64,000 nt of DNA from Kondoa subrosea (taxonomy: Eukaryota): NCBI GenBank assembly GCA_039545335.1, contig BCIN01000002.1:1501118-1565117 (forward strand), given 5' to 3'. Below, piece after piece: positions 46,144-56,031 of this stretch; within the stretch, counting starts at the first letter, position 1; each line of letters opens with the position of its first letter. Below the pieces are notes generated by a model. It worked only from the letters and a program-made list of their open reading frames with translations, searched no databases and had not been told where the DNA came from. The position numbers were made by a program, and so were the translations under genes.

Positions 46144-48396
46144 TCAAGCAGAAGTTGGAGCCAGAATGTCAAATTGATGATGTTGAGGTCTGAATAAATG
46201 ACCAGCATTAGCAGCAGCAGTCATAGCTTGAGCTTGTTGCATTTGCAAAGGGTTTTCTAAAGTAGCAAAAGCAGAATTTGGTCTTCTTATTGCTTGTTGA
46301 TCAGGTAATGGAGGTGAAGAGAAATTGAAATAACCATTCATTGCGGCTTCTTCTTCTGCTTCTCTACCTTGACCCAACAGAGGAACAGAACCAGCTCTTT
46401 GAGAAATGGGTTGAGTGACTAAGAATTGGAAACTAGCTGCTTGTTGGGTTTGCAAAGGAGCTTGAGCTGAATGAGATCGTCTCATATCTGTAGAAGAAGC
46501 ATGCCAATCTTCAGTAGGTAATGGAGCAGAGTAGCAATAGTTGTTATTGCCAATGTTTCCATGTAGAATAGCAGGAGGAGCCAGCCCAGATGATTGCTGA
46601 TATTGCTGGACTTGCTCATTGGCAGCAGCTTGACATTCTCCTTCCATCCTCGACAAAACCTCCGCTGCCGATTCTACCCTTTCTTCACCTTCTTGACCAT
46701 GATTCGAAGTTCCAGCTTGTACTGCTTGATCAAAATTGAAGCTGCCCATCAAAGCAGCAGAATGAAGAGGAGGAAATTGATTGAACCAATCCATTGGTGG
46801 TTCTCCGACCGGTGAAGTTCCAGACTGGTTGAAGACAACAGGAGTATTGAGGAAAGTATTGTTGAGGGCTCCAGTCAACTGCGAAGGGGAATTTTGAGGT
46901 TGGAACGATGTGGAAGAAGAAGTAGAGATGCCAGATAAGTTGAGAGCAGGAACTCGAGCTGCTCTTCTTGCGCTCAAACCAGTACCAGCTGCAACAGGAG
47001 ATTGCGCCAATCCTCCTTCTTGACCTAACCTTTCTGCGGAGCCAGGTGGAGAGCTGACGAACATGCTTAGCCATTCAGGAGAAGGAGTATTGGCTCTAGG
47101 TGAAGCTCGTCGTTCAGGTGTTTGTTGAGCTCGCTTGGATAAGAAATAGCCCATATCCTGTTGTTCACCTTCGACCTGTTGCTGATGACCTTCTTGCTCG
47201 TACAAGTTTGTTCCGTCGGGCAAATTAACTCTCGGGATAGTGTAGCCATATTCAGCATGAGGAGGGGTAGCAAGAGGTGGAGAGTCAGAATTAGAAGAGC
47301 GAGAGGTAGAAGGCCGACGGTGAAGATCGACTTCACCATGACCCTGCTGCGCTTCTCTTTGAGCTTGATCTTCTGCTTGACCCTCAAACTGTTCACTATA
47401 TTGACCTTCCAGAAACTGTTGTTGCATTTGTTGTTGTGCTTGTTGCTGATAATATTGCTGTGTTGCCCAAAACTGTTGCGCCAGCGCATACTGATGATGT
47501 TGCATTTGCATTTCGCGTTCAGGAGAATAGCCATGGTGAGCAGTATAAGCAGCATGAGCTTCAGCAAGAGCATTAGCTTGTGCATGAGCAAGGATTTGGT
47601 CGTATTCAGATGGTAGAACATCAAAGGTAGGAGGGGAAGCCATGCCATTCTCTTCCGTTGCAAGGTTTTGAAAGAATTGACTTGCGGGAGAAGGTACAGA
47701 CAAATCTTGATCTTGATCTTGGCTCATTTCTTGCATCAATCGTTTAGGAGTAGTCATTGGACTTGACAAAGGTTGAGCTGGATAATAGCCATCTTCAGCT
47801 TCGGCAAAGTAAGCCTTGTTTGCTGTTCTGCGCGCGTTGCAAAGAGGGCAGACTTTGACGAATCGAGCAATGAGTTCTTTAGGAATCCAAGAATAGTAAC
47901 GTCTGACTTGAGCTGCAGTCTTGTCGCGTCCACCATGAGATGATTGATTATGACATTGAACCAGAACGTCATAGATTTGACCGCGAATAGCCACAGGTCG
48001 ATTCTCATGAGTGACCAAATGCGCATCGTTTGTTTTCACCAGGCCTGACTCTCGAGATTGAGATCAATCGAATCATCATAATAGATTCAAACATACGGAA
48101 CATCTTCTTGACCCAGAATCTAAATTGAGCAGTCTCCAGTTGGGTATTCTTTGGATCTCTGAGTACGTTGAGAACTTGGCCGTACATCTTGTCCGTCATC
48201 TGTTGAGAGTGACCGATAAGACGCGTCCTTGATTGAAAGCACGACATGTGGAGAGACTTACCAGAGCCTTTTCGCGCTTTCTAGGATTGAGAGCATAAAT
48301 GTACTCTTCGACTTGCTGCTCAAAGACCACTTCAGAAGGGAAACCATCTCTTCCATCGCGCGTGAATGTAGTACGGGGAGGTGTAGTGCTAGTCAT
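46144..48396 (-). CDS. Protein with integrase zinc-binding (H2C2) domain and long Q/P/S-rich tail; NOL4-like domesticated domain
   Basis: Exons YIYALNPRKREKAL|MTDKMYGQVLNVLRDP..TAQFRFWVKKMF|..HENRPVAIRGQIYDVLVQCHNQSSHGGRDKTAAQVRRYYSWIPKELIARFVKVCPLC; no DDE core follows. Confidence 0.8.
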
Positions 48397-49194
48397 GATG
48401 AATTGCTGTGACAGGTAGACTAGTCAGCCTCAAGGTATTGCTATAACTAGCTAAAGAGCATACCTCTTCAGACCTGTGTTGTGAAGGATTGATGTCGAAA
48501 TGGTCTTTAGGAGATGGATTTGAAACAAGCTGGCTAGCCAGTAGTTGGATGAAAGAGTGTGTGTTTCCTTATTACACAAAGGCCTGCTGGTTTGAAAGTA
48601 ATGTTTTCGTGAGTTGAAGACGCGCTAAAACCCTCCAGCTAAGGTATGTATGAAAGGATTTTTCGCGTTCTCGTGTATATAGAGATGAAAGAGTGAAAGG
48701 TCCCGCCTTGACAAAGCAATGAAGTTCTCAAGGACAAAGATAGGGAAGAGGAAAGAAAGAAGAAGGAGGCCAAAAACAGCCTGATCAAAGAACTTCAAAG
48801 TGGATTGGGTACTTTTTTGCATGACATCGGCAGAAGCTCCTGTCCTTCGATCTGGGGAGTCCTCTTGCATCGAAGGGATGTATTATCGGATCGCAGCTCC
48901 CATCTAGAGCTCTTCATATAGCATTGGAGAGAAAGAGATTCCATTAGGCCAAATACAGCAATCGCGCAAACACATTTGTCGATGTCTTTTCATTTGCTGT
49001 GTATCGATTGACTTCATCTGAGGCGTATAGAACAGCATTGAGTGCTGCCTAGTCGCTGTTCGGGCATCACTCTTTTGGTCTTGCGATTTTCCCGACTTGT
49101 CCCTTCTTACTAACAGCCAAGTTCTCTACAATAGCTCATAGATAGAGGTGCGCAGAATGTGTGCCACGGTGTACACCGCTGACTCATTAAGCAG

Positions 49195-49543
49195 ATGTTT
49201 GGCATTCGGTCAGCCTTTGCAGTTCTCAATTCGGCTTCGACTGGAGAAGTTAATACAATTGACAGCGCTTACCCTACACCTATCCTTCGCCCAATGTGGC
49301 CGTTCCTTGCTGGAGGCGCTCTCACTCTCTTTGGAGTTATGAAAATGCAAAGCGCTATGCTGCAATGTTGGTCTCGCTTTATCTTTCATTCTGTTCGAAC
49401 GCCAATCTGACTGACTGCATTACAGCCGATGAATTCAAGAGCGATCCAAGGAACCCTGCTGGTACAGCCTCGGTCTATCAACTACAATAATCGCTAATGT
49501 TTGATCTCTAGCTGCCCGCGCAAAAGCTTCAGCTGCTCATTAA
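49195..49543 (+). CDS. ATP18: Mitochondrial ATP synthase subunit i/j
   Basis: Four exons splice to MFGIRAYPTPILRPMWPFLAGGALTLFGVMKMQSAMLQSDEFKSDPRNPAAARAKASAAH*; 5'-UTR intron 49148-49194. Confidence 0.92.
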
Positions 49544-50007
49544 ACGCTTTCCACATTCGAGTCAAGAGCTTATATAGCAAGCGGTGCATTGAGTCTGGTT
49601 TGCAGTGTAATTTTGTTTGGTGCAAAGCGAGCTTCAAGAAAGATCACTCACATCCTCTGGCGATACGATAGCTCTCCTCGGTTCTCTTATGTTCGCTCTA
49701 TCAATCTTCATCCCACCTCGATCTCCGGAACGCTGCATGCTGTGATGTTCCCTCTGAACAGAAGCCTGCTACCGTTAATCTCCCAAAATCTTCAGGCGGA
49801 CTTTCGCGCTGCTTTGCTATCCTGTAGTAGGAATATTCATCCTTTGCATGACTCCGGCTTCTTCAACGACTAATTTATATTGCTCTGATACTCCTGGGTT
49901 TCTGTTTTCATGTCCAAATCAGGCTTAGTTTCGGTTGACCTCTGGTCTCTTCACCATTCTCTGTCCCTGTACGCTTTCACTCATCACTGACTGATCTATG
50001 GACTTAG

Positions 50008-50458
50008 AAACGGTATTCTGAGCGTCTCTGCTTCTAACAAGACCACTGGTAAATCAAACAAGATTGTCATCACCAACGACAAGGGACGTCTCTCGAAAGA
50101 AGAAATTGAGCGCATGGTCAACGATGCTGAGAAGTACAAGGCTGAAGATGAAGCTGCAGCATCACGAATCCAAGCCAAGAATGGTCTGGAATCTTACTCT
50201 TACAACCTCAGAAACTCGGTCGAGGGCGATCTCAAAGACAAGCTTGATGCTTCAGACAAGGAAACTCTTGAGAAGGCCATCAATGAGACTATCTCTTGGC
50301 TTGATGCATCGGCGGAAGCTTCAACAGAGGAATACACTGAGAAGCAGAAGGAACTTGAAGGAGGCATGCCAAACATGGGAGGAGCAGGAGGATTCCCGGG
50401 CGCAGGAGGAGCACCAGGAGCTGGTTCTGACGAACCTTCAGTAGAAGAAGTTGATTAG
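50008..50458 (+). pseudogene. 5'-truncated HSP70 3'-end copy with intact frame; possible 114-aa lid+EEVD protein from ATG 50114
   Basis: Aligns to the reverse complement of 53380-54007 with an in-frame 177-nt deletion; no upstream HSP70 sequence recognisable in 49544-49960. Confidence 0.85.
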
Positions 50459-50862
50459 ATTCTTCTTTTCTAAGTCTTCTTTCTTTTCGCATTGGTTTAC
50501 TTCAAGAGAGATTGAGAAAAGGTCAAAGCATTATGTGTAGTATGAAATAATTCCTTTAGGCGACAAATGTTATGTTTCTTGCATTTGCTTCACCATGTCC
50601 TACTGAAATATTGACGTTGATATACATACTTGTGGAAATGGTTTGACTATGTACAAGATACTTACAAGTGTTCCGCCTCGTCTGACTGGCGAGCTCGACC
50701 TGCCTGTGCGACCTTGCCAGCGTTCCCCTACAGAGGCTTAGCTGCTGCTATAGCTGAATTGGAAGACTTGAATGGCCGTGGCAGAAGATGTACGCCGGAG
50801 GTAGCTGTCATTCAGCTGGCTTTTTTCCGCTCGAGAGTGCTACGAAAATATGGCACATCAGA
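50008..50862 (+). repeat. Left arm of a long imperfect inverted repeat (partner ~52945-54007 on - strand)
   Basis: Near-identical in the coding part and 3'-UTR (e.g. GCATTATGTGTAGTATGAAATAATTCCTTTAG), shared CGCCTCGTCTGACTGGC at ~50675/53150, patchy similarity out to ~50862/52945. Confidence 0.88.
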
Positions 50863-50935: not shown

Positions 50936-51826
50936 CTATTGTTGAAAACTTTGTAGAAGAGCAGTAATTTCCGCATCATTTGGAAGCGGAAGTTGCTGTT
51001 GCTGCTGTTGTTGAGAAGGTTGAGTTTGCATTCCCGCTGCAGCCATAAAATCATCAAACGACATTTCAGGTTGTGTACTATTCTGAGCAGGAGCCGGAGG
51101 CATTGGAGGTATGTTCCCGAACCCTGCTAAAAAAGCGTCCACATCGAAATCGATTGCAGGTGCTTCATTTGCTTGAGGTAAACCTGGAAGAAATAGAGAC
51201 ATAGGATTGAGAATGGCAGTACTACTTGCTGGAAGAGGTGCGGCGTTGACAAGAGAATTGTCGAAAGATGCAAGAAGAGCGTTCTGGTTGGCTATGGAAG
51301 TTACTGGGATTGGTTCTTGTTTGACCTTTTGGAGGAGAGGTTCAGCCATAGGTGTGTCTGAGATAGCAGCGGGTGTTTGCACAGTCGTAGTAGGCGTATT
51401 GGAACTGCTTGGCAAAGGTGTTTGACCAGCAAGCTTTCGTAGATCTCGTTCGAGAACAGCTCTAGCAAAGCTCTACAGGAACGGATGAGCGGCAACACAA
51501 CATGAAGTCGCTGCAGCATACCAGCTCATTCTCAATCGAGTCCAGCAAAGCATTGTAACGCGTTTGCTCCGCTTTCAGTGGATCTGTAAGGGTCGAAGGA
51601 GCCGATGGAGCATAGCCTTGGACGCCAAGTGTAAGTACATCCGCACGAAAGCGAACGATAGAGCCGATATGCATAATGTTTTTCTGAGATAGATAGAAAG
51701 TCAAGACTTGAGAAAGAGGAAGATAGCAGCAAGAAGAAGAGAATCTACTTTGAGACAAGGTTCCAGCTCATTCAGGGCTCTCATAGCCGCGCTGTTCTCC
51801 TCGGCTACCTTTGAGCTCGACATCAT
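50936..51826 (-). CDS. Hypothetical protein, possible Mediator tail subunit Med2/Med29-like
   Basis: Three exons: MMSSSKVAEENSAAMRALNELEPCLK|KNIMHIG..RYNALLDSIENEL|SFARAVLERDLRK, then a P/Q tail with acidic-aromatic patches (DFDVDAFLAGF, SFDDFM). The CDS is solid; the Mediator call is tentative. Confidence 0.6.
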
Positions 51827-51867: not shown

Positions 51868-52882
51868 ATGTCTGGCTACACAGAGAACCAGACAGGTCTG
51901 TGTTGGCGTAATCCAGAGTTTCTAGCTGTACGCTGTGCCTGCTCTTGTTTCGCTGAACTGGTCTGACCTTGGATGATCAGTATTTCGGAAGTTTGACGCA
52001 AGCGAATGTCCTTGACTACTTTTCAGAGGTTGCTACTCTTCTTGTCCCTTCTCCTTTCTCTCCTTATTTCTATTTCCAACAGTCCCCATTTTGGGACAGA
52101 CAGAGTACAAATCAAGCGTTGCGCATGCAGACTCAGTATAACTCAGAAGCTGGTCTGCAGCTGAATGAAGAAGAGAATCTCAAGTGCGTAGACTCAATCT
52201 GAGATCTTCATCCATCCTTATCGGAATGCGCAGACGTTTTGTTGGCGTAGAATTCGCTTTGGTCTATTCGAACCTACCGAGTACTTTCGTTATACACAAG
52301 CGAAACCGGACAAGTCCTACTGAATGTATGTATGCTTCAACTTTGTGATTGCAAAATCTCATTAGCCAATAGCTGTACCAATTGCGGCGTATTACGTAAT
52401 GAACGCAAACGTCTAGTGAGCAATTTGCAGATCTAATCGCTGTTGCCGCTGAAGTTGCCTCAACAGTCAAGCTCCAGACCTCTTTAACATACTTTCCTGT
52501 CGCCTTGTGAGTTCGTAAAGGATCTTGAATCGCTATCGTTAACAGCTGTTCTATCTTTTAGCATACTGCAATACATTCTTTTCGTACTTCTCTTGATCTG
52601 GTTCGAGATAAGGCACCTCTTTTCGATCCACGTAGAGGGCGAGTTATTCGTTTCTCAATCTCGAAACTAGGCTAACAATCCCAAAACAGTTATGTTTGGG
52701 AAATCGAAAAGTCAGAAGCGATGACTCAATCATCAGCAGCAGCAACTATCAAAGCAGCTGAATCAAGCGAGAAAGATTCTGCAAAGGACGCAACCTCGAC
52801 TAAACTTTCTACTTCGGATAGAATGAATGCGGAAGCAATGCTTTGGGTTGCGCTGCAGACAACGGCAAAAGATATGGCCTGA
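51868..52882 (+). CDS. MED6: Mediator of RNA polymerase II transcription subunit 6
   Basis: LCWRNPEFL|..NVLDYFSE|SPFWDRQSTNQALRMQ, RFVGVEFAL, FVIHKRNR.SP, AAYYVMNANVY|QAPDLFNILSCRL, FDPRRG. Confidence 0.92.
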
Positions 52883-53379
52883 TCGTAGTATATAATTTCC
52901 AGATCAAGAGGTTAGGAAACCTTCATTCTCGCATGAAAGAAGCAGTCTGATGCGCGACTTTTCCTAGTCTGCTCAACCGGCAAATCCCAGCTCATGTGCA
53001 GCAGTTTTTGGTGGGGATCGTCTACAACGACTAACCAAGGCCTTAATTCAGCCACAGCAGCAATTCGAATCAGGCCGCTGTCAGACAGAGACAGTGCTGT
53101 CAGGTCGCAAAAGCAGATCAAGCTCGCGCCGCAGACTGATGCAGCCAAGCCAGTCAGACGAGGCGAACCACTTGTAGATATATTGTAGTAGTCAAAGCAT
53201 TTCCAGAAGCATGTACATAAACGTCAATATTTCGGGAAGGCATAGTGAAGCAAATGCAAGAAACATAACATTTGTCGTCTAAAGGAATTATTTCATACTA
53301 CACATAATGCTTGGACCTTTTCTCAATCTGTCTTGAAGTAAACCAATGCGAAAAGAAAGAAGAATCAGAATGAACGAAT

Positions 53380-55891
53380 CTAATCAACTTCTTCTACTGA
53401 AGGTTCGTCAGAGCCAGCTCCTGGTGCTCCTCCTGCTCCTGGGAATCCGCCTGCTCCTCCCATGTTTGGCATGCCTCCTGGTGCTCCGCCAGCAGCTGTA
53501 ACGAGAAAAACAAAGTTATCAGTGACCAGGACCTTGAAAAGCACTTCAAGATGGCGTACCACTATAGATCTTGGTCATGATAGGGTTTGCAATGCTGTAG
53601 AATTGACAGACAGGTCAGTCAAGACCTTTTAAAAGGAAAAAAATCAAACAAACCCTTCAAGTTCCTTCTGCTTCTCGGTGTATTCTTCTGTTGAAGCTTC
53701 CGCCGATGCATCGAGCCAAGAGATAGTCTCGTTGATAGCCTTCTCAAGGGTTTCCTTGTCTGAAGCATCGAGTTTATCTTTGAGATCGCCTTCTACTGAA
53801 TTTCGGAGGTTGTAAGAGTAAGATTCCAGACCGTTCTTGGCTTGGATTCGTGAGGCTGCAGCTTCGTCTTCGGCCTTGTACTTCTCAGCATCGTTGACCA
53901 TGCGCTCAATTTCTTCTTTCGACAGACGACCCTTGTCGTTGGTGATGACAATCTTGTTTGATTTACCAGTGGTCTTGTCGGAAGCAGAGACGTTCAGAAT
54001 ACCGTTACTGTAAGAAACCACCATCAGGACACTCATTGTTGAGTGAAATGACAGAAACTTACGCATCAATATCGAAAGTGACCTCAATCTGAGGAACACC
54101 ACGAGGAGCAGGTGGGATACCAGAAAGTTCGAATTTGCCGAGCAAGTTGTTGTCCTTTGTGCGAGCACGTTCACCTTCAAAGACTTGAATGAGCACACCA
54201 GGCTGGTTATCAGCGTAGGTGGAGAAAGTTTCGGATTTCTTGGTTGGGACAGTTGTATTTCTCTTGATAAGAGGAGTGAAGACACCACCAGCGGTTTCGA
54301 TACCGGTGGACAATGGTGCGACATCGAGAAGAAGAATTTCAGAAGTCTTTTCGGAAGTGTCGCCTGAAAGAATGGCGGCTTGAACAGCTGCACCGTAAGC
54401 GACGGCTTCATCAGGGTTGATTGACTTGTTTGGCTCCTTGCCTGTCATGCAGAGGAACCTTAAGCATAAATTATGCAAGGGAAATACTATCTGACTAACC
54501 GTTGAAGAAGTCTGAAACAAGCTTTTGAACACGGGGAATACGGGTAGAACCACCAACAAGGACGATTTCGTGAACGTTTGACTTGTCAATCTTTGAATCC
54601 CTCAAGACTTTCTCAACTGGTTCCATAGTGGATCGGAAAAGATCTTGGCAGAGTTCTTCGAAACGAGCTCTGGTAATGGAAGTGTAGAAGTCGACACCTT
54701 CGAAGAGAGAGTCGATTTCGATGGAAGTTTGAGCAGCGGAAGAAAGAGTTCGCTTAGCACGTTCGCAAGCAGTACGCAGACGACGGAGAGCACGAGCGTT
54801 GGAGGAAAGGTCTGTAAGGATAAAGATGCGATTAGCCACACCAAGACTGGTCAAGCATGATTACTCACCCTTCTTGTTCTTGCGCTTGAATTCAGCGACA
54901 AAGTGGTTGACAAGACGGTTATCGAAATCTTCACCACCCAAGTGGGTGTCACCAGCGGTGGCCTTGACTTCGAAGATACCTTCTTCAATGGTCAAGAGGG
55001 AAACATCGAATGTTCCTCCTCCCAAATCGAAGATGAGAACGTTCTTCTCGCCAGTAGTCTTCTTGTCCAAACCGTAAGCAATGGCAGCAGCGGTAGGTTC
55101 GTTGATGATACGAAGAACGTTGAGACCAGCAATCATGCCGGAATCTTTTGTTGCTTGACGCTGAGAATCGTTGAAGTAAGCTGGAACGGTGACGACGGCG
55201 TTGACAATTGAGGTGCCGAGGTAAGCTTCAGCAGTTTCTCTCATCTTGAGAAGAACCATTGAACTAGCGAGACCGTCAGCTAGGCAACATAATCGAGTGG
55301 TTAGATGACATACGAAATTTCTTCAGGAGTGAATTGCTTGGTCTCGCCTCTGTATTCGACTTCGATAACAGGCTTGCCAGCTTCTTTTGCGACGACCTTG
55401 AATGGCCAGTGCTTCCTGTAATCCGTCCGACCGAGTTAGAAGATGTCTTCTGATCGCGGCCAAGCGACTTACATGTCTGACTGTACTTCAGCATCAGCTA
55501 CTTTGCGGCCAATAAGACGCTTGGCATCGAAAACAGTGCTACAAGAATATCAGCAACCGCAGTGTAATGCACGAATTAGGACTCACTTGTGAGGGTTCAT
55601 AGCAGTTTGGTTCTTTGCGGCATCACCAATCAGACGTTCTGAATCGGTGAAAGCGACATAGGAAGGAGTGGTTCGATTGCCTTGATCGTTAGCGATGATT
55701 TCCACTCGGTCGTTTTGCCATACTCCCACGCAAGAGTAGGTTGTTCCAAGATCTGAAAGGATGCATGAGCGAAAGGAAGCTGCTAGTGAGATATGCTCGA
55801 CATACCAATTCCCTGGAAATCAGCGCAAAATGAGTACAAAAAAATCAATGCAGAGGGAATGACGAACTATCGCCTTTCCTGAAGCAGACAT
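53380..55891 (-). CDS. HSP70: Cytosolic Hsp70 chaperone (SSA type)
   Basis: [89 protein letters not shown]-terminal SVEEVD*. Confidence 0.98.
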
Positions 55892-56011: not shown

Positions 56012-56031
56012 CGAACTCTCTCGAAGGTTAG
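56012..56031. promoter_or_regulatory. Imperfect heat-shock element upstream of HSP70
   Basis: cGAActCTCtcGAAggTTAg: four in-register nGAAn/nTTCn-like units (two mismatched) ~120-140 nt upstream of the HSP70 ATG; further CGAAAGAC repeats at 56044-56061. Confidence 0.35.

Follow-up and report, generated by a model that had tools for sequence, protein, structure and literature searches.

The 3′ end of an intact cytosolic HSP70 gene of Kondoa subrosea occurs a second time, in inverted orientation, within the same 64-kb window, which is the whole stretch of DNA that was analysed here, and this partial copy has kept an open reading frame and nearly all of its encoded residues while it became different from the parent gene at many silent sites. 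Judged from this pattern of substitutions, protein-level constraint on the copy is statistically solid. In the following the copy is called T and the parent gene G1. Tentatively, and with a confidence somewhat short of even, T is read here as a still selected gene for the helical lid and the EEVD tail of Hsp70 which would be translated from a point upstream of exon 9. Very recent truncation of a working full-length paralogue is given almost the same likelihood as this reading.

The parent gene is located at 53380-55891 on the minus strand and encodes a protein of 651 amino acids with a C-terminal EEVD in 11 exons. The exon model was assembled from coordinates and gives a stop-free translation, and the 10 introns are all of the GT-AG type with lengths of 48-64 nt. 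The protein is a cytosolic HSP70 of the SSA/Hsc70 type (Pfam PF00012), and its residues 3-651 are 97% identical to those encoded by L001, a transcript contig from a metagenome. Among the matches listed the closest named HSP70s were those of Sporidiobolales and other Microbotryomycetes (83-90% in the C-terminal part), and rust HSP70s matched more weakly than these. Exon 2 is a micro-exon of 7 nt (55806-55812, minus strand) flanked by introns of 55 and 53 nt, and it is required for the invariant Gly-Ile-Asp of the first phosphate-binding loop. Another micro-exon, exon 10, has 35 nt and is found near the C-terminus (53560-53594, minus strand). About 120 nt 5′ of the ATG of G1 a heat-shock-element-like word is present (56013-56025, minus strand) which has one mismatch to the TTCnnGAAnnTTC consensus.

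T lies on the plus strand and is an inverted partial duplicate of the 3′ end of G1. It corresponds to G1 in two arms, the first comprising 50015-50361 of T and 53654-54000 of G1 (93% complementary) and the second 50359-50649 and 53189-53479 (92% complementary). The 5′ limit of homology, as determined by blastn, is at about 49975, within intron 8 of G1 and away from any exon edge. The remnant of this intron (49975-50007, plus strand) retains a CTGAC/CTGAT branch-like motif and the 3′ AG (50006-7). It is followed by an exon 9 equivalent (50008-50361, plus strand), which encodes the last two beta strands of the substrate-binding domain and the lid helices A to D, by a deletion joint (50359-50361, plus strand), and by an equivalent of the end of exon 11 (50362-50458, plus strand) with a Gly/Pro/Met-rich tail, EEVD and the stop codon TAG at 50456-58. 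The 3′ UTR and flank were duplicated as well (50459-50690, plus strand), with fainter homology reaching on to about 50850. The first in-frame ATG opens a frame of 114 codons (50114-50458, plus strand), which was the product proposed in the initial annotation. T starts at residue 485 of G1, its reading frame is open in the 5′ direction only to 49991, and it has no start codon inherited from G1. When the 651 amino acids protein was compared by tblastn with the whole 64-kb window, no second fragment of residues 1-484 was found outside G1, and no copy of the G1 promoter was found elsewhere within the 64 kb.

At the deletion joint the two repeat arms overlap in an AGG microhomology of 3 nt. The segment of G1 absent from T comprises 177 bp (53477-53653, minus strand). 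Introns 9 and 10 (59 and 64 nt) and the 35-nt exon 10 between them account for most of it, and the remaining 19 nt are the start of exon 11. By this deletion 18 codons were lost and the frame was kept. The cut can be placed in four ways, in none of which the ends are GT...AG, and the loss is therefore a DNA deletion and not a product of splicing. The origin of T is a DNA-level rearrangement, consisting of a breakpoint in intron 8 and the 177-bp microhomology deletion. Origin as a retrocopy (processed pseudogene) was rejected, because a part of intron 8 is kept, the deletion has no GT...AG ends, and homology extends beyond the UTR into the flank.

For comparison of silent and replacement changes positions 50009-50455 of T were aligned codon by codon with exon 9 and the end of exon 11 of G1, which yielded 149 codons. 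In the initial annotation 25 synonymous and 2 non-synonymous changes had been counted by eye, both replacements had been placed 5′ of the ATG at 50114, with 22 synonymous and no replacement changes in the 114 codons thereafter, and the stop codon and 3′-UTR had been described as intact. The Nei-Gojobori method reproduced the counts and their distribution exactly, the stop codon is retained, and 232 nt of the 3′ flank can be aligned. The two sequences have a dS of 0.295 and a dN of 0.006 with 147 of 149 residues identical, and neither a stop nor a frameshift occurs in the 149 codons of T. The dN/dS of about 0.02 equals the one between G1 and L001, which comes from a related species (dN 0.025, dS 1.22). 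Under a model in which G1 accepts silent changes only and T has been neutral all along, the probability of finding no replacement given 22 synonymous changes is 2e-5 to 7e-5, the range being over transition bias, and the neutral share of the history of T is at most 6-9%. The properties of T are not those of an unprocessed pseudogene; only a relic whose age is below about 0.011 substitutions per site would still agree with them. The outgroups L001 and L002 are saturated (dS 1.1-2.9), so that the number of silent changes on the branch of T itself is uncertain; with only three silent changes on this branch the probability becomes 0.012-0.026. Polarisation of the 23 differing sites with these two outgroups assigned six to T and six to G1 and left three ambiguous; the other eight were assigned by one outgroup alone (four sites) or were conflicting (four sites). 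A relative-rate count of our own against L001 gave nine sites unique to T and nine unique to G1.

The non-coding parts of the duplicate were compared in the same way. In the intron 8 remnant, here aligned over 49969-50007, there are 25 matches, 14 mismatches and 16 gap columns (p = 0.36), in the 3′ UTR 206 matches and 25 mismatches at 231 aligned positions with one gap column (JC distance 0.117), and in the flank of T past +233 the mismatch fraction p is 0.39. As these parts have diverged, the duplicate is old enough for decay, yet its coding part has not decayed. Conservation of the 3′ UTR had been considered as a proof of function of T, with 25 differences in 231 positions versus 16 in 75 fourfold sites (p = 0.03). 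It was rejected as such, because a neutral T together with a constrained G1 fits these numbers equally well.

The two replacements are found at codon 5 (50021-23), which encodes Ser in T and Asn in G1, and at codon 10 (50036-38), which encodes Asn in T and Asp in G1. The residues of T at these two positions are present in none of 80 related loci; at the position of codon 5 Asn occurs in 78 of the 80, and at that of codon 10 Asp or Glu in 78 of the 80. For codons 1-10 the two replacements compare with 2.8-3.9 expected, so neutrality over the whole history fits there. Codons 11-35, which are also located 5′ of the ATG at 50114, contain no replacement versus 7.3-10.4 expected for untranslated neutral DNA (P for neutrality 7e-4 to 3e-5). 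The P for a chance location of both replacements in codons 1-10 is about (22/344)^2 = 0.004, calculated by our own arithmetic from site counts. By these counts the relaxed part of T is the ten codons beside the breakpoint. Constraint upstream of the ATG at 50114 is new relative to the initial annotation, and the 114-codon frame starting there, which had been regarded as the constrained unit, has to be given up in this role, as codons 11-35 upstream of it are equally free of replacements. Since these codons are constrained, translation would have begun upstream of exon 9 for most of the history of T. At 50035-50036 T has TA where G1 has CG, a pair of neighbouring changes of which one is silent and the other a replacement. 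The resulting word, TCTAAC, is like the fungal branch-point consensus, with an AG 25 nt 3′ of it just before the IVITND codons.

On the reading of T as a gene that has been kept, entry of translation by way of a short new 5′ exon, rather than at the ATG at 50114, is most likely, because constraint begins near codon 11 of the exon 9 equivalent. A putative exon of this kind is 49910-49968 (plus strand), with an ATG at 49910, 19 codons and the donor GTACGC at 49969. Removal of a 39-nt intron up to the AG at 50007 would join it in frame to the exon 9 equivalent and yield a product of about 169 amino acids. In the scan of 49100-49985 one of six donor-like sites had an in-frame ATG, which is no better than chance, and the candidate intron is shorter than all ten introns of G1. 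At position -3 a C is found for the ATG at 50114, a T for the ATG at 49910, and an A in G1. Directly upstream of T the gene for the mitochondrial ATP synthase subunit j is located (49195-49481, plus strand, three exons, PF04911, E = 1.6e-13); its stop codon is at about 49479, which leaves about 430 nt before the ATG at 49910. A fusion of T with this gene was rejected, because splicing from its donor at 49367 would not keep the frame of T. For a heat-shock element 5′ of T one site with one mismatch was found (49633-45), which is not above chance, the window containing 22 such sites versus 27 expected.

With regard to the product, the initial annotation had described a protein without the ATPase and substrate-binding beta domains in which the lid and EEVD are kept. 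This is correct for the ATPase domain, which is absent, as the Pfam match to PF00012 covers only positions 476-588 of the 599 in the profile, and for EEVD, which stands directly before the stop codon; the beta-sandwich substrate-binding domain is incomplete in T rather than wholly gone, its last hairpin alone being left. It had further been proposed that most of the helical lid is kept. An AlphaFold2 model of the 114-codon frame, calculated from an input alignment of 25 rows, agrees with this in three confident helices (residues 4-37, 46-65 and 71-83, pLDDT about 90), followed by a disordered EEVD tail (residues 86-107, pLDDT below 50), with a mean pLDDT of 76, but the last lid helix, helix E, is missing from T. 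This helix is kept by 22 of 24 aligned relatives, and the other two (P0012 and P0022) lose the HSP70 reading at helix E. The region of T is matched by lid or lid-tail fragments in the PDB, namely 5z8q_A (Ssa1, 101 aa), 3lof_A, 2p32_A and 4kbq_D (Hsc70), with E-values from 1.5e-18 to 1.6e-11. Since stand-alone lid fragments have been solved, the corresponding region of T should be able to stand alone as a folded chain, and its lid part is predicted by the model to fold by itself. The fragments 5z8q, 3lof, 2p32 and 4kbq_D represent the same region of the protein as T, presumably as laboratory constructs and not as natural genes, and in 4kbq the fragment is bound to the CHIP TPR domain.

In cells the EEVD tail of Hsp70 is a common docking point for Hop/Sti1, for other TPR proteins and for class B J-proteins. 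At the level of their abstracts PMC11722011 and bioRxiv 10.1101/2022.11.26.517237 assign to EEVD a role in Sis1 binding. On the reading of T as a selected gene, T would have been partial from the start and then kept as a translated gene, read from the short new 5′ exon with the candidate ATG at 49910 and the 39-nt intron. Its product would contain what is left of the last beta hairpin and the lid helices A to D but not helix E, and behind these a flexible Gly-rich tail and EEVD. Lacking the ATPase and the pocket, the only known activity of Hsp70 which it could retain would be the docking of EEVD-binding partners. These would be Sti1/Hop-type TPR co-chaperones and the class B J-protein Sis1, for which T may act as a competitor or a buffer. 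The proposal that T competes for EEVD sites is derived from its motif and from what is generally known of Hsp70 co-chaperones. We infer transcription, start site, splicing and partner binding of T. It is possible, though well away from assured, that an inverted partial HSP70 duplicate became a natural lid-plus-EEVD protein of about 115-170 amino acids which tunes the chaperone network via EEVD docking sites and which was kept while silent sites diverged by about 0.3. A history in which T was partial from the start accounts for the place where constraint sets in, for a deletion that keeps the frame and for the absence of small lesions. Against this reading stands that codons 11-35 correspond to strand beta-8 and the start of helix A, for which no obvious role is apparent without the rest of the domain, and constraint on strand beta-8 and the start of helix A is the pattern expected of a full-length protein.

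The latter pattern is what would be seen if T were the relic of a full-length inverted twin of G1 whose promoter and exons 1-8 were deleted very recently. This is a serious contender, only a little less likely than the reading of T as a selected gene, and it further assumes that the 177-bp deletion occurred simultaneously or while the twin still worked and that the fragment is too young for decay. The twin would account for a constraint profile like that of a full-length HSP70, which takes in strand beta-8 and the first part of helix A with no ATG before them, for a dN/dS identical to that of functional orthologues and for the lack of a usable in-frame ATG where the constrained part begins. 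Both replacements affect positions conserved in 78 of 80 loci, as would be the case for first hits after loss of function. Paralogues of the SSA type are also common, with at least one further copy in this genome (seen at 54063, see below), and fragment models occur in related yeasts. The relic requires on the other hand that the truncation falls into the last 6-9% of the history of the lineage, and it leaves unexplained why both replacements lie in the first 10 of 149 codons (P about 0.004), unless repair of the breakpoint was mutagenic. Traces of exons 1-8 and of the G1 promoter are absent elsewhere in the 64 kb, and two large lesions would have arisen without a small one, the internal one of which happens to keep the frame.

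Silent differences between T and G1 are clustered, 8 of the 22 that follow the ATG at 50114 being located in 12 codons (50210-50245, permutation p = 0.0086). Five of these polarise to G1, one more does so by one outgroup, and two polarise to T. The cluster may go back to an old conversion event or to clustered mutation. At position 54063 of the window a read contig matches exon 8 of G1 as far as its border with the intron, and the 255 letters after that are unrelated; this was observed in both of two runs. Its end of exon 8 is at least 97% alike to G1, and this loose end implies at least one further HSP70 paralogue elsewhere in the genome with a near-identical exon 8. These two observations are the basis for another explanation, in which T is a young neutral fragment and the 3′ part of G1 was overwritten by gene conversion from such a third paralogue. 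As a conversion into G1 brings many silent differences at once, the clean frame of T would then be uninformative on selection. The further paralogue, alike at the end of exon 8 and departing at the intron, would be a candidate donor, and the clustered differences mostly polarise to G1. The intron remnant, the 3′ UTR (25/231) and the distal flank differ too, however, so that the tract must span all of them and the donor must have the same flanks, the remaining differences are found all along the reading frame, and the even relative-rate count against L001 speaks against a burst on the side of G1. Gene conversion is therefore considered improbable.

Misjoins typically arise at inverted repeats close to genes with several copies, and T might thus be a collapsed or chimeric haplotype or a misplaced paralogue. 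The sequencing reads speak against this. Contigs built from the reads, which sum to about 19 Mb, span the 5′ breakpoint of T in both of two runs, with 48500-50066 contained in a contig of 103 kb, and the deletion joint is spanned, again in two of two runs, by a read contig of 343 nt (50113-50455) with no differences. Word depth in T was similar to that of its flanks, 165 versus 140 in run X1 and 43 versus 53 in run X2, and read contigs end only at long identical words common to T and G1. Both DNA runs are from one sample and are probably the assembly's own source, so that this check cannot count as independent of the assembly. In the reads T is a real sequence present in single copy, and an assembly artefact is unlikely, in our estimate very much so. 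A role at the RNA level, in which the inverted arms of about 680 nt, 92-93% complementary and 2.5-3.3 kb apart, regulate G1 as a hairpin or an antisense RNA, is hardly credible, because selection for pairing resists change at all codon positions alike and 25 silent changes out of 27 together with a kept frame are what selection on the protein leaves behind.

Between the two arms lie a Gln-rich open reading frame (50936-51472, minus strand) with no Pfam match and a Med6 exon (51957-52202, plus strand; PF04934, E = 2.6e-9). An open frame of 639 codons at 46144-48063 (minus strand) has an N-terminal integrase H2C2 zinc-binding domain (PF17921, E = 1e-7); its remainder is Gln-rich and of low complexity, with no further retroelement domain.

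If T is selected, it would be a genetically encoded competitor for the shared EEVD docking site, which cells have to ration, and a ready tool for probing the chaperone network. If it is a relic, it shows that a recently dead pseudogene can bear a perfect signature of purifying selection, and as recent death mimics purifying selection in this way, dN/dS alone should not be read as function. Either way the locus shows the origin of 3′ fragments beside highly expressed HSP70 genes in this group of yeasts, and the HSP70 fragment models of its relatives provide a set of comparable cases.

Four such C-terminal HSP70 gene models were collected from related yeasts, a short one of 178 amino acids in Rhodotorula babjevae (P0002), a chimera of 564 amino acids in R. 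pacifica (P0201), and short ones of 286 amino acids in Rhodosporidiobolus microsporus (P0141) and of 189 amino acids in Sporobolomyces salmoneus (P0003). Like T they combine an unrelated N-terminus with the C-terminal part of HSP70 and end in EEVD or nearly so; unlike T they keep helix E and have differing 5′ limits, and they are known here from their proteins alone. P0002 is identical in 145 of 145 residues to a full-length protein which seemingly lies on the same contig (132,773 bp in both cases). P0201 is 95% identical to the full-length P0145, which is encoded on the same contig with a locus tag three numbers apart, and a 4-residue indel and an altered last residue relative to the full-length gene make it look like decay. 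The upstream reductase part of P0201 had no match in the 64-kb window of T, and the two loci are therefore probably independent events. For the fragment of S. salmoneus the best full-coverage match among the proteins listed was 86% identical, with none near-identical. From these sequences HSP70 3′ fragments look like arising repeatedly beside the parent gene in related yeasts, which raises the prior for the reading of T as a relic.

Neither the deletion joint of T nor a protein identical to T was found among the 120 of 737 matches listed with 62-200 amino acids or among the 120 of 5995 matches listed with 264-2000 amino acids. Thirteen short matches were inspected, and of those with the same Met start most were exon-level open reading frame calls on short contigs. 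All of the 80 metagenome loci were full-length or cut at the end of the contig, with no 3′ fragment preceded by foreign DNA among them, and in locus L003 there was no second HSP70 copy within 3.8 kb downstream. In the literature, searched by listings and abstract openings, a natural lid-only Hsp70 gene was not found.

With the SSA/Hsc70-type HSP70s, as represented by G1, T shares the EEVD end and a homologous 3′ UTR, and it differs from them in having no nucleotide-binding domain, no helix E, 18 residues less and of the pocket the last hairpin only. That a partial duplicate which looks like a pseudogene can be retained with a function has a precedent in principle in the conserved functional partial gene duplicates which the abstract of PMC6092874 reports for Triticeae; these differ from T in belonging to another gene family and another kingdom. 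A naturally shortened cytosolic Hsp70 paralogue is known from plants as truncated Hsp70 (Hsp70T, PMC10687569). According to the abstract of that paper Hsp70T loses the C-terminal motif and keeps the body of the protein, and T would be its opposite, consisting of the lid and the motif only.
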